Shown piece by piece: positions 5,331 to 8,881 of a DNA stretch of 11,449 nucleotides. Every line of letters starts with the position of its first letter. Within the stretch, counting starts at the first letter, position 1. Origin of the DNA: a virus (taxonomy: Duplodnaviria > Heunggongvirae > Uroviricota > Caudoviricetes). Below the pieces are notes generated by a model. That model worked only from the letters and a program-made list of their open reading frames with translations, was not told the DNA's origin and did no database searches. Location: IMG/VR virus record IMGVR_UViG_2703718771_000002, one strand, 5' to 3'. Both the position numbers and the translations under genes were made by a program.

Positions 5331-5582
5331 ATGGAATTTCATGAAAGTGCGATTTGTGATTTTCGCGCTAACGCAAATTCAGTAAAACCACAGCCAATTG
5401 CAGTTCTTTTAAAAACAATGGGTGCGTGGGCTGTTTTATGCTTCGCCGCTGACGACACTGACGCAAGAATGGCAATAGGACAAGAGATGGAGATGGACCC
5501 GACAAACGATGAATTCATAATTTATGGCGCTCCATCTAATTACTTACTTGATACCTGCAACATTTACAACAAGGCTGCCTGA
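5331..5582 (+). CDS. Hypothetical protein, 83 aa, first gene after N (ral/sieB-equivalent position)
   Basis: ATG 5331 with SD GAGGTG 4 nt upstream. No family recognised. Confidence 0.55.
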   Translation: MEFHESAICDFRANANSVKPQPIAVLLKTMGAWAVLCFAADDTDARMAIGQEMEMDPTNDEFIIYGAPSNYLLDTCNIYNKAA

Positions 5583-5629
5583 TGGTGGCCTTTATTTTTG
5601 GCATAAACAACAGAATAAACACAGCACTG

Positions 5630-5657
5630 TGTATTCATTCCAACGAGTGAATACACG
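5630..5657. other. Inverted repeat: 9-bp stem GTGTATTCA / TGAATACAC with a 10-nt loop
   Basis: Perfect 9-bp arms at 5630-5638 and 5649-5657 in the untranslated gap between the 5331 ORF and cIII. No T-run follows. Confidence 0.4.
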
Positions 5658-5718
5658 GAGCAATGTCGCTCGTAACTGAACAGGAGCCGACTTGTTCTGA
5701 TTATTGGAAATCTTCTTT

Positions 5719-5744
5719 GCCCTCCAGTGTGAGGGCTTTTTTAT
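5719..5744 (+). terminator. Intrinsic terminator inside the early-left operon (tL1-like, presumably overridden by N)
   Basis: Stem GCCCTC / GAGGGC, 6-nt loop, then TTTTTTAT. Confidence 0.6.
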
Positions 5745-5808
5745 ATGCATACCAATAACGCTTCACTCGAGGCGTTTTCGTTATGCAATCAAATATAAGG
5801 AGTTACCC

Positions 5809-5943
5809 ATGATGCACTTTCAGCTCGCGGGTAGCGGCGTCATGTCCGCTTTCTACCCGCACGAATCTGAATTATCACGCCAAGTTAAACAATTAATCAG
5901 AGCAGCAAAGAAACAACTGGAGGCGTTATGCGCAATGAAATAG
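5809..5943 (+). CDS. cIII: cIII-like small protein (44 aa), putative FtsH/HflB inhibitor
   Basis: ATG 5809 with SD AAGGAG 6 nt upstream. The central segment ESELSRQVKQLIRAAKKQL resembles the lambda CIII amphipathic region (ESLLERITRKLRDGWKRL) as recalled. Position matches lambda cIII. Confidence 0.5.
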   Translation: MMHFQLAGSGVMSAFYPHESELSRQVKQLIRAAKKQLEALCAMK

Positions 5944-6080
5944 CCATTAATCACCAGATGCTTCGTGCTGCACAGAACAAAGCAGTAATAGCCCGATTTA
6001 TTGGTGATTCAAAAATGTGGCTTGAAGCAAATAAAGCGATGAAATCAGCTATCAACCTTCCGTGGTATCGCAGGAAATGA
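5928..6080 (+). CDS. Small protein (50 aa), kil-like by position and size
   Basis: ATG 5928 with SD GGAGG. Translation MRNEIAINHQMLRAAQNKAVIARFIGDSKMWLEANKAMKSAINLPWYRRK. Overlaps the cIII stop region and the next ORF (ATGA). The resemblance to lambda Kil is from uncertain memory only. Confidence 0.35.
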   Translation: MRNEIAINHQMLRAAQNKAVIARFIGDSKMWLEANKAMKSAINLPWYRRK

Positions 6081-6235
6081 GTTTTACAGATAACTGGTCA
6101 GACGAAGAATTCATTCGTCAGATGAAAGATTTAATCGGTAACGAAGGAGATATTCATGTCACTTGCAACCACAGTGAAGGAGAGCAAGTTACAGAGACGC
6201 ATGTACACGCAGAAAGCTCTCTGGTATCGCCATAA
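6077..6235 (+). CDS. Small acidic hypothetical protein (52 aa)
   Basis: ATG 6077 overlaps the upstream TGA (ATGA). Translation MSFTDNWSDEEFIRQMKDLIGNEGDIHVTCNHSEGEQVTETHVHAESSLVSP. Poor SD spacing, so only weakly supported. Confidence 0.3.
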   Translation: MSFTDNWSDEEFIRQMKDLIGNEGDIHVTCNHSEGEQVTETHVHAESSLVSP

Positions 6236-6334
6236 TGGCGACCGCGAAGGAATGCGGGTATGCCTTAATTTGTCCCGAGTCGAAGTATTAAATCAGCGTT
6301 ATTTTCTTGGGCCATGTCCATTCTGAGGTGAATT

Positions 6335-7042
6335 ATGGATTTGAACAAATTCGATGAGCCATTCAGCCCTGAAGATATCGAATGGCGAATACAGCAAAGC
6401 GGTAAAACACGCGATGGAAAGGTGTGGGCTATGGTGCTGGCTTATGTCACGAACAGGGCAATCATGAAACGCCTGGATGATGTTTGCGGCAAAGCAGGAT
6501 GGCGCAATGAATACCGCGATATTCCCAACAACGGCGGCGTTGAATGCGGCATATCAATAAAGATTGATTCCGAATGGGTAACCAAATGGGATGCTGCTGA
6601 AAACACGCAGGTAGAAGCCGTCAAAGGTGGTCGTTCCGGTGCAATGAAGCGCGCTGCCGTTCAGTGGGGAATCGGTCGGTATCTGTATAACCTTGAGGAA
6701 GGTTTCGCACAAACATCTCTCGATAAAAAGCAGGGGTGGCACAGGGCAAAACTGAAGGATGGAACAGGATTTTACTGGCTCCCTCCATCGCTTCCGGGAT
6801 GGGCAATCCCAGCATCAGATAACAAACCATCACCAGAAAATACCAACCAGAAATCTCCATCGGTTGACTGCGAACAAATCCTGAAAGACTTCAGCGATTA
6901 TGCGTCAACAGAAACTGACAAGAAAAAACTCATCGAGCGTTATCAGCGTGACTGGCAATTAATGGCTGGCAACGAGGAAGCGCAGGCTAAATGCGTTCAG
7001 GTAATGAACATCAGAGTTAACGAACTAAAACAGGCGGCATAA
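6335..7042 (+). CDS. Rad52/Sak-type single-strand annealing protein (phage recombinase)
   Basis: 235-aa ORF with SD GAGGTG. Contains a GIGRYLY motif (AAVQWGIGRYLYNL), which I associate with the Rad52/22 annealase family. Immediately followed by ssb and an exonuclease. Confidence 0.6.
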   Translation: MDLNKFDEPFSPEDIEWRIQQSGKTRDGKVWAMVLAYVTNRAIMKRLDDVCGKAGWRNEYRDIPNNGGVECGISIKIDSEWVTKWDAAENTQVEAVKGGRSGAMKRAAVQWGIGRYLYNLEEGFAQTSLDKKQGWHRAKLKDGTGFYWLPPSLPGWAIPASDNKPSPENTNQKSPSVDCEQILKDFSDYASTETDKKKLIERYQRDWQLMAGNEEAQAKCVQVMNIRVNELKQAA

Positions 7043-7549
7043 ATGGCAAGCAGAGGCGTAAATAAGGTGATTATCCTTGGTCGGGTAGGACAAGACCCGG
7101 AAGTTCGATACTCACCATCAGGAACAGCGTTCGCTAACCTGACAATAGCCACGTCAGAACAATGGCGAGATAAAAATACTGGCGAGCAAAAGGAATTGAC
7201 TGAATGGCATCGTGTTGCTGTATCCGGGAAACTGGCTGAGGTCGTGGGGCAGTATGTGAAAAAAGGTGATCAGATTTATTTCGAAGGAATGCTGAGAACC
7301 AGAAAGTGGAAAGACCAGTCAGGGCAAGACCGTTACACAACCGAGGTTCATGTCGGAATTAATGGCGTGATGCAAATGCTTGGCGGCATTGGCGACAGCA
7401 AACAACAAGCAGCCAGCAGGCAATCACAGAAGCCACAGCAGCAATCATCACCAGCACAACACAACGAACCTCCGATGGATTTTGACGACGATATACCCTT
7501 TGCACCAGTAACTCTCCCCTTCCCTCGTCACGCTATTCACGCAATTTAA
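7043..7549 (+). CDS. ssb: Single-stranded DNA-binding protein
   Basis: 168 aa with an OB-fold N-terminus ([18 protein letters not shown] ... TEWHRV), a Gln/Pro-rich linker and the acidic C-terminal tail DFDDDIPF typical of bacterial and phage SSB. Confidence 0.9.
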
Positions 7550-7557
7550 GGACTTAC

Positions 7558-8106
7558 ATGAATCACTTAATGGTTGACCTTGAAACAATGGGCAACGGGC
7601 CATACGCGCCAGTTATTTCTATTGGGGCGGTATTCTTTGACCCGAATACCGGAGAAACAGGAGAAGAGTTCTCGGTAAATATCTCGCTTGAGTCATCAAT
7701 GCGATATCGGGCGCGTCCTGACGCTTCAACGATTTTATGGTGGATGGAACAGAGTGAAGAAGCCAGAAAATCGCTAACCAGCAACACTCAAGAGCTTTCA
7801 ACGGCTCTTTCATGGTTATCTGAATTCATCATAAAGAACGCTAACCACAAATTCGTTCAGGTTTGGGGGAATGGAGCATCATTTGACTGCGTTATTCTCC
7901 GAAACAGTTATTCGCTGACAGGGCAGCCAGTTCCGTGGCAGTGGTGGAATGACCGCGACGTAAGAACAATCGTCGAACTTGGGAAGGTAATAGGATTCGA
8001 CCCTAAGCGAGATATGCCATTCAAAGGAACTCGCCACAACGCGCTTGATGATGCCATTCACCAAGCCAAATACGTTTCAGCGATCTGGAAAAAGTTAGCT
8101 AAATAA
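7558..8106 (+). CDS. DnaQ-like DEDDh 3-prime to 5-prime exonuclease
   Basis: 182 aa with Exo I-like VDLETMG, Exo II-like WGNGASFDCVIL and Exo III-like HNALDDAIHQAKY motifs. Confidence 0.65.
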   Translation: MNHLMVDLETMGNGPYAPVISIGAVFFDPNTGETGEEFSVNISLESSMRYRARPDASTILWWMEQSEEARKSLTSNTQELSTALSWLSEFIIKNANHKFVQVWGNGASFDCVILRNSYSLTGQPVPWQWWNDRDVRTIVELGKVIGFDPKRDMPFKGTRHNALDDAIHQAKYVSAIWKKLAK

Positions 8107-8122
8107 TCAACAGGAGAAAACC

Positions 8123-8419
8123 ATGCCAGCGCCTCTGTATGGTGCGGATGACGCGCGCCGCTGTTCCGGCAATTCCGTATCGGAGGTGCTGGATAAATTC
8201 AGGAAAAACTACGACAGGATAATGTCGCTACCGCAGGAAACGAAAGAGGAAAAGGAATTTCGCCACTGTATATGGCTTGCAGAGAAAGAAGAACGCGAGC
8301 GAATTTACCAGACATCAATCCGACCATTCCGCAAAGCCACATATACCCACTTCCCTGAATATATCGACCCGCGCCTGCGTAATTACCGCTCACGCTATGG
8401 CGCTATCAGTAATGGTTGA
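8123..8419 (+). CDS. Hypothetical protein, 98 aa
   Basis: ATG 8123 with SD AGGAG 6 nt upstream. Basic and charged; no family recognised. Confidence 0.55.
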   Translation: MPAPLYGADDARRCSGNSVSEVLDKFRKNYDRIMSLPQETKEEKEFRHCIWLAEKEERERIYQTSIRPFRKATYTHFPEYIDPRLRNYRSRYGAISNG

Positions 8420-8429
8420 GGAATTAACA

Positions 8430-8720
8430 ATGAAAACAATGAAGCTAAACATCGACCTCGGCAAATACGTTATTACCGGAACCAAACACGACCTGATTCT
8501 TAGTGAAAGAGGAATTATCAAAGAAGGTGAGAATGCAGGGAAAGAAACACTAAGTCGTATCGGTTATTACAGCAAGTTTGAGCATCTGGTTAAAGAGTTA
8601 TGCAACCGTGAAATTCTGTTATCTCAGGCGCAGACGTTACAGGATATTCAGCAGCATATCGAGACTGTATGTGTGTCACTTAGCATGGCTATTGACCAGT
8701 TCGTGGAGAGTAAATCATGA
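8430..8720 (+). CDS. Hypothetical protein, 96 aa
   Basis: ATG 8430 with SD GAGGAA 6 nt upstream. The track's longer version (from 8277) overlaps the preceding gene. Translation begins [17 protein letters not shown]. Confidence 0.55.
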
Positions 8721-8881
8721 GGGGACTTGCATACAATCCCGGCATTCTTCCGGCAGAAATGATTATTCGCCAACGCGTAAAGCCAATGCCATCGAGAGAG
8801 GAATTGCTTAAGAGAAATTCTTTTCCATCAGTGAATCAAAACAAATATCTGAATGCGATGTGGCGGAGTGGGAAGAAATGA
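8717..8881 (+). CDS. Small hypothetical protein (54 aa), translationally coupled on both sides
   Basis: ATG 8717 overlaps the upstream stop (ATGA); its own stop TGA 8879-8881 overlaps the next ATG at 8878 (ATGA). Translation [54 protein letters not shown]. Confidence 0.35.

Follow-up and report, generated by a model that had tools for sequence, protein, structure and literature searches.

The analysed stretch of DNA (11,449 nucleotides, hereafter referred to as the window) is lambdoid prophage DNA of E. coli. Its region 5700-8800 shows 99.9% identity with a prophage in E. coli 2013C-4974, and 117 of 5426 complete E. coli genomes contain a match to at least 80% of its length. The region carries a Rec module, which is located within the early-left operon. 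The features on which our analysis is based are as follows:

5809..5943, + strand: cIII (Pfam cIII, E 1.1e-29), marker of the early-left, pL-type operon
5928..6080, + strand: kil (Pfam Lambda_Kil, E 1.7e-20), context gene
6062..6326, + strand: two overlapping small open reading frames (6062-6235 and 6156-6326) at the position of P22 arf
6335..7042, + strand: Sak/Rad52-type single-strand annealing protein, 235 aa (Pfam Rad52_Rad22, E 5e-26)
7043..7549, + strand: phage SSB of the bacterial OB-fold type, 168 aa (Pfam SSB, E 1.6e-36)
7558..8106, + strand: DexA-like DEDDh 3'-5' exonuclease, 182 aa (PF16473, Pfam E 2.8e-73)
7576-7578 (D7), 7582-7584 (E9), 7885-7887 (D110), 8035-8037 (H160) and 8050-8052 (D165), + strand: catalytic codons of the exonuclease
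8123..8419, + strand: Abc2, RecBCD-modulating (anti-RecBCD) protein, fourth gene of the module (PF11043, E 4.7e-61)

As can be seen, cIII and kil are located upstream of the annealase gene. The positional analogy with lambda gam-bet-exo drawn in an earlier note, which was made from the letters of the window alone, is thus correct: the module lies in the early-left operon, downstream of both genes. All genes of the module are co-directional and tightly packed, no promoter or terminator signal within it rises above the chance level, and terminator-like hairpins were confined to positions 5571-5776, upstream of cIII. A promoter scan of the module returned fewer matches than shuffled sequence, and the exonuclease gene had no promoter of its own above chance; the scan therefore provides no evidence of independent exonuclease expression. 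The two small open reading frames matched phrog_2123 (E 1.4e-41) and phrog_1723 (E 9.4e-36), both tagged "recombinase", and are kept beside the annealase gene in many loci. Their identification as homologues of P22 Arf is unsupported, the likeness being limited to an SDEEFI motif (E 1.6). A DUF5405 gene is located downstream of the module. There are no Chi sites in the window, which, at 11.4 kb, is too short for this count to be informative.

The earlier note had described three of the genes, at 6335-7042, 7043-7549 and 7558-8106 on the plus strand, as a tightly linked module coding for a Rad52/Sak-type annealase, an SSB and a DEDDh exonuclease. The three open reading frames have these coordinates, the first two abutting at 7042/7043 and the third following after a spacer of 8 nt (7549/7558), and the family assignments were confirmed for all three products by the Pfam matches listed above.

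The annealase scored 91.9 bits against the Rad52_Rad22 profile (curated cut-off 20.3), matching profile positions 7-153 of 153. Over residues 6-159, it shares 59% identity (E 9e-67) with Lactococcus phage ul36 Sak, a Rad52-like annealase and a founder of the Rad52-like Sak family (PMC2896510, PMC5928155). These matches place the 235-aa protein within the SSAP families. The Sak/Rad52-type core extends from residue 1 to residue ~160 (nucleotides 6335 to ~6814), and a C-terminal three-helix domain occupies residues ~180-235 (nucleotides ~6872-7039). Residues 157-235 match the C-terminal end of P22 Erf (63% identity, E 2e-30), a protein whose core is unrelated at the sequence level. The same C-terminal segment is also present on the Erf-family annealase of one locus (L051) and, with weaker similarity (33%, E 2e-5), on the AAA_24/Sak4-like P-loop annealase of another (L046). 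The domain was modelled as a three-helix bundle (pLDDT 79). A fold search with this model yielded no diagnostic match, a database search with the C-terminal 62 residues retrieved nothing but short pieces of this protein itself, and querying the PDB with the annealase sequence gave nothing significant, a WW-like stretch being matched at E 0.1. As judged from these alignments, the annealase is a domain chimera composed of a Sak/Rad52 core and an Erf-type C-terminal domain, which accounts for its double labelling in databases, as "Rad52/22" and as "Erf-like". The chimera fits the shuffling of partner interaction domains that is suspected in PMC12315714.

The stop codon TAA of the annealase gene abuts the ATG of the SSB gene (…GCATAA/ATG). 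The SSB protein matched TIGR00621 (E 4.5e-49, 166.9 bits, cut-off 53.95) in addition to PF00436, the Pfam SSB family listed above. Its acidic tip, DDDIPF (7484-7501), is not at the C-terminal end of the protein and is followed by an unusual 15-aa extension (7502-7546).

The 8-nt spacer between the SSB and exonuclease genes holds the ribosome-binding site TAAGGACTTACATG. The exonuclease matched the Rv2179c-like 3'-5' exonuclease profile PF16473 over its full length, and motifs Exo I (DxE), Exo II (D) and Exo III (Hx4D) are complete. The earlier note's reading of the DEDD catalytic residues holds: when 19 homologues with identities down to 60% were aligned, D7, E9, D110, H160 and D165 did not vary. 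The only solved structures matched in a PDB sequence search were those of T4 DexA (8KEL/8KEN, E 7e-14). DexA was also the top fold match of the exonuclease model (pLDDT 91.8), with an E-value of 1e-12 and a TM-score of 0.79, ahead of all others by six orders of magnitude. The next Foldseek matches were RNase T, Cap18, Orn/REXO2, ExoI and RNase AS (that is, Rv2179c). The Foldseek probability was 1.00 for DexA, RNase T, Orn/REXO2, ExoI and RNase AS, in agreement with an RNase H-like DEDD fold. A proofreading subunit (DnaQ proper) is unlikely, since neither the module nor the open reading frame list of the window includes a polymerase gene.

The abc2 gene begins 16 nt past the end of the exonuclease gene and has its own ribosome-binding site, CAGGAGAAAACCATG. 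Its product scored 203 bits against PF11043 and is 93% identical to the characterised Abc2 of P22. The earlier note had found no Gam-like nuclease inhibitor nearby, and this claim has to be given up in view of an anti-RecBCD gene at such a distance. Neither a Gam-type inhibitor nor a 5'-3' exonuclease of the lambda Exo or RecE type was found among the ten open reading frames between positions 5809 and 9378 using Pfam and PHROGs. In the account of Murphy (2000) given in PMC5928155, and in PMC12315714, Abc2 binds RecC, whereupon the host RecBCD comes to supply resected ends. The P22 and HK620 modules function without a phage nuclease (PMC12315714, PMC5928155).

The module type is already known: several sequenced phages have it annotated, a 2025 catalogue includes it, and both the gene arrangement and the polarity puzzle are in the literature. 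In a survey of 325 lambdoid phages, Zheng, Casjens, Davidson, Amundsen and Smith (Genome Res 2025, PMC12315714) treat DnaQ-type nucleases as probable members of Rec modules and point out that 3'-5' exonucleases usually lower recombination. The remark in the earlier note that a 3'-5' enzyme has a polarity opposite to that of lambda Exo is legitimate and had already appeared in print in that survey. Coliphages mEp235/mEpX2 and Salmonella phage epsilon34, which belong to the SAP + SSB-1 + DnaQ-type nuclease + Abc2 class of the survey, contain the same four genes in the same order, and in mEp235 and epsilon34 these are annotated as a Rad52/22 protein, an SSB, an exonuclease and Abc2. Nucleotide identity over 5700-8800 is 97.6% with mEp235 and 90%, with the same gene order, with epsilon34. 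The annealase is 100% identical to its mEp235 counterpart and the four core genes are essentially alike in the two elements, whereas ~9% of the 3.1-kb query, outside the core genes, did not align. The accessory neighbours also differ, with DUF5405 downstream in the window and DUF2737 in mEp235.

Other well-known systems share parts of this organization. The arf-erf-abc1-abc2 genes of P22 occupy the same operon position, and similarity extends to Abc2 and to the annealase C-terminal domain (93% and 63% identity, as given above); however, the annealase core of P22 is Erf and not Sak/Rad52_Rad22, and P22 has neither an SSB gene nor a nuclease gene. A search of the window for P22 Abc1 and Arf gave no match. 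The hkaM-sak4-ssb-abc2 module of HK620 (Hutinet et al. 2018, PMC5928155) follows the same logic of an annealase, a cognate SSB, which stimulates the phage annealase in that module (PMC5928155), and Abc2. It differs in having a RecA-like and not a Rad52-like annealase core, in the family of its SSB and in the absence of a nuclease. Phage ul36, whose Sak is 59% identical to the annealase core over 155 residues, also has an SSB gene next in order, but there the annealase C-terminal domain is unrelated and the SSB gene is followed by a replisome organizer gene and not by an exonuclease gene or abc2. With lambda Red (gam-bet-exo), the module shares the genomic position and the presumed role, an annealase combined with control of RecBCD. 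In lambda, the nuclease is a 5'-3' exonuclease of another fold and RecBCD is blocked outright by Gam, while the window has an SSB gene of its own, a nuclease of the DEDDh 3'-5' type and Abc2, by which RecBCD would be modulated.

Comparison with phages HK75 and Sf6 revealed that the exonuclease gene is a clean, gene-sized cassette of 565 bp, inserted in the 13 nt that separate the stop codon of ssb from the ribosome-binding site of abc2. Both phages code for the same annealase/SSB/Abc2 set. In HK75, abc2 comes directly after ssb, without an exonuclease gene; in Sf6, an HNH endonuclease gene occupies the exonuclease position. At 80% identity or more, 14 phage records contain the exonuclease compared to 92 with the annealase, and among complete E. 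coli genomes the exonuclease is present in 173, the Sak core in 397 and Abc2 in 1101. The exonuclease is thus a dispensable, minority member of the module. It follows that the three-gene module of the earlier note is only partly retained: the three genes are real, but Abc2 brings their number to at least four and, as seen in HK75 and Sf6, the exonuclease is optional.

For 80 viral and 80 species-dereplicated genomic loci, we determined which kinds of gene flank the exonuclease. In 39 viral loci, the exonuclease had at least 71% identity to that of the window; of these, 37 had the SSB gene directly upstream (four with an HNH gene between) and 37 had an Abc2 homologue directly downstream. Among the dereplicated genomic loci, 11 with at least 68% identity were informative (from Escherichia, Citrobacter, Lelliottia, Enterobacter, Kluyvera, Pantoea, Photorhabdus and Providencia), and in all 11 the SSB gene was directly upstream. 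Overall, SSB directly preceded close relatives of the exonuclease in 48 of 50 viral and genomic loci, the phylogenetic independence of which is incomplete. The annealases of the 11 genomic loci belong to Sak (three loci), Erf (three), AAA_24, which is Sak4-like (two), and short Sak4 (three). The SSBs are either of the canonical type or of the unrelated HK620 type; in Providencia, Kluyvera, Pantoea and Photorhabdus, the exonuclease relatives follow a pair of Sak4 and HK620-type SSB genes. Since the exonuclease adjoins two unrelated SSB families, its position is not due to simple block inheritance, which argues for a functional link with SSB.

Paralogues with 53-63% identity to the exonuclease almost never have an SSB neighbour. 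In at least 22 of 41 viral loci, which is most of those with a classifiable downstream flank, they are located just before xis/int, and they are often found within a few kilobases of a gene for a deoxyribonucleoside 5'-monophosphate (dNMP) phosphatase (phrog_318). One viral contig (L040) holds both paralogues. The family therefore has at least two context classes, SSB-linked and xis/int-linked.

A more distant member of the family is EcD, an E. coli homologue of DexA. According to Kang et al. (NAR 2025, PMC12153337), who also solved the structure of DexA, EcD degrades 5hmC-containing T4 DNA, leaves unmodified DNA intact and gives cells protection against T4. The likely sequence of EcD was recovered using the forward cloning primer from the supplement of PMC12153337; a two-primer pattern gave no match in viral contigs, while the forward primer alone did. 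The recovered protein is 189 aa long, starts with MIDTET… and contains Ala78, as described in PMC12153337. Its gene lies beside genes for a DNA methyltransferase and a nucleoside deoxyribosyltransferase, in the early region of another prophage; dexA itself is found among the early genes of T-even phages. DexA and EcD share the Pfam family PF16473 (E 1.7e-49 for EcD), the DEDDh set and the fold with the exonuclease of the window, which is ~30% identical to DexA and 37% identical to EcD and lacks the extra loops of DexA. Taken together, the location of the ~60% paralogues by xis/int and the non-recombination context of EcD imply that the family also acts outside Rec modules.

The module is very probably a P22/epsilon34-type Rec module, made up of the arf-position open reading frames, annealase, SSB, exonuclease and Abc2 and operating by an Abc2-based logic. 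By analogy with the systems described above, during lytic growth Abc2 would bind RecC and reprogram the host RecBCD, so that 3' single-stranded tails are produced and the phage ends are spared. Phage SSB would coat the resected single-stranded DNA, and the annealase, by means of its Rad52-like ring core, would pair the SSB-coated strands with complementary single-stranded DNA, its portable C-terminal helical domain probably making partner contacts. Annealing would lead to genome circularisation or repair and would feed recombination-dependent, concatemer-forming replication. The most likely supplier of resected DNA is thus Abc2-modified RecBCD and not the DEDDh enzyme. With this source of resected DNA, the DEDDh enzyme would not be an analogue of lambda Exo, and the polarity puzzle largely disappears. 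The most likely role of the exonuclease is instead that of an accessory associated with SSB, which would trim the 3' single-stranded ends or flaps left unpaired or in surplus on annealed intermediates, the trimmed 3' ends making the intermediates ligatable or usable as primers. We infer this 3'-end trimming role tentatively and rate its chances at slightly below even. Counting against it are the usual effect of 3'-5' exonucleases, which is to lower recombination (PMC12315714), the dispensability of the gene and the family members outside Rec modules. The explanation as a whole, with module identity, mechanism and exonuclease role taken together, we regard as somewhat more probable than its opposite.

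Three other roles of the exonuclease have to be weighed. One can suppose that it is an independent "moron", HREX- or EcD-like, which excludes modified-DNA phages by digesting the 5hmC-containing DNA of T-even phages while its own and the host DNA are spared, and which plays no part in recombination. The common Pfam family with EcD, the activity of EcD against T4 DNA and the discrete cassette form of the gene, together with the other paralogues outside Rec modules, speak for such a role. The residues that define HREX enzymes in PMC12153337 (equivalents of DexA W152 and D169 present, the tetramer residue D90 absent) give a mixed picture in the window exonuclease. W130 aligns with W152, and at the D90 position there is a gap, beside Ala83; however, D169 aligns with F147, with D148 adjacent, so that its equivalent is ambiguous, and Trp130 varies within the subfamily. 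Identity with EcD is just 37%, and PADLOC returned only a weak, generic DEDDh match for the exonuclease. Genes of a repressor-controlled early-left operon should be silent in a lambdoid lysogen, and the exonuclease gene is inside such an operon, where no separate promoter for it stood out from chance. Finally, a moron would leave unexplained the near-constant place of the gene after two unrelated types of SSB. We therefore consider this role unlikely.

Nucleotide salvage would also account for the likeness to T4 DexA, the closest solved structure, since scavenging is among the two established roles of DexA (PMC12153337): the enzyme would convert single-stranded DNA and oligonucleotide debris, e.g., RecBCD products, to dNMPs for phage replication. 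The ~60% paralogues often share an operon segment with the phrog_318 phosphatase, but this association is a feature of the other tier of paralogues, not of the SSB-linked one; identity with DexA is only about 30%, and the adjacency to SSB is again left unexplained. We know of no degradation of the host chromosome by temperate lambdoid phages, which also counts against salvage, and we find it rather improbable. A self-contained system of three genes along the lines of the earlier note, in which the 3'-5' exonuclease itself makes single-stranded DNA for the annealase and replaces lambda Exo, with no RecBCD inhibitor, has in its favour the tight packing of the genes at the position of lambda red. 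It is contradicted by abc2, 16 nt downstream, by the HK75 set, which lacks the exonuclease, by the Sf6 set, which has an HNH gene instead, and by the P22 and HK620 modules, which need no phage nuclease (PMC12315714, PMC5928155). Such a system is very improbable.

Returning to the SSB-associated trimming role, the SSB-linked clade of DexA-like enzymes might be a dedicated 3'-end-processing factor of SSB-containing annealase modules that is recruited by phage SSB, although we would rather bet against this more specific proposal. The internal acidic tip of the SSB, its 15-aa tail and the C-terminal domain of the annealase possibly form one interaction network. To our knowledge, a step in which 3' tails or flaps are trimmed has been demonstrated for no phage recombination system. 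The puzzle that the proposal addresses is that a 3'-5' exonuclease, a class of enzymes that usually lowers recombination, is kept behind SSB in modules with annealases of four types. If the proposal is true, an SSB-recruited 3'-trimming factor could improve recombineering toolkits.

A C-terminal three-helix domain of ~55 aa recurs in annealases of three types whose cores are unrelated (Sak/Rad52, Erf and AAA_24/Sak4-like) and is probably a portable partner-interaction domain; a fold search with it returned nothing informative. Upstream of this domain, the window annealase contains a WW-domain-like stretch (Prp40, E 0.1-0.14; the match alone is not significant), which is kept in the Sak protein of ul36.
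Window 6872-7039: three-helix domain of the annealase; corresponding entries, P22 erf (L124) 1102-1719, Erf-family locus L051 2333-2983, AAA_24/Sak4-like locus L046 2587-3459
Window 6719-6826: WW-like stretch GWHRAKLKDGTGFYWLPPSLPGWAIP, annealase aa 129-164

The annealase is intact in the window and is annotated as a frameshifted pseudogene in the closest genome, E. coli 2013C-4974, where the prophage integrase adjoins host sbcB (exonuclease I). Two small ORFs, both conserved and both labelled "recombinase" in PHROG, share 80 nt, read in different frames, at the position held in P22 by arf, and no significant similarity to Arf was detected for either of them. Farther upstream, an ORF preceding terminator-like hairpins at 5571-5776 encodes an arginine-rich motif that recalls N-type antiterminators.
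2013C-4974 (L004) 12636-13342: annealase; 17943-20727: prophage integrase/sbcB region
Window 6062-6235 and 6156-6326: small ORFs, phrog_2123 and phrog_1723
Window 5000-5272: ORF with arginine-rich motif …GTAASRRRARRANLQ…

DDDIPF, the canonical acidic tip of SSB, is internal in the window protein and is followed by a 15-residue tail, as in HK75 and more than 30 further loci. At loci with an HNH gene after ssb (Sf6, with gp26, and L018, L020, L024 and L036), SSB terminates precisely at …DIPF, and the C-terminal end of the HNH protein is a 14-residue stretch. Judging by these two protein ends, the HNH cassette seems to have entered ssb within the 3′ end of that gene. The SSB tail may be a functional peptide or may just mark a conserved DNA boundary.
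Window 7484-7549; Sf6 (L003) 4766-5245; HK75 (L002) 3332-3838: SSB acidic tip and C-terminal tail

One viral contig, L040, carries the SSB-linked exonuclease and, farther down the same operon, its 60%-identical paralogue; this co-occurrence suggests that the two have non-redundant roles. In Aeromonas, the SSB gene is located after, not before, a 56%-identical exonuclease, which is a further independent exonuclease-SSB juxtaposition.
L040 4001-4546 and 7339-7884: the two exonuclease paralogues
Aeromonas loci L197 and L198, 4001-5037: exonuclease-SSB juxtaposition

The likely sequence of EcD, the DexA homologue published as a "bacterial" defence nuclease, is carried by viral or prophage contigs, and the gene adjoins those for a DNA methyltransferase and a nucleoside 2-deoxyribosyltransferase.
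Contig L121 6401-6991, minus strand: likely EcD gene, found also in L100, L105, L115, L116 and L118
EcD is probably prophage-encoded rather than a core bacterial gene.
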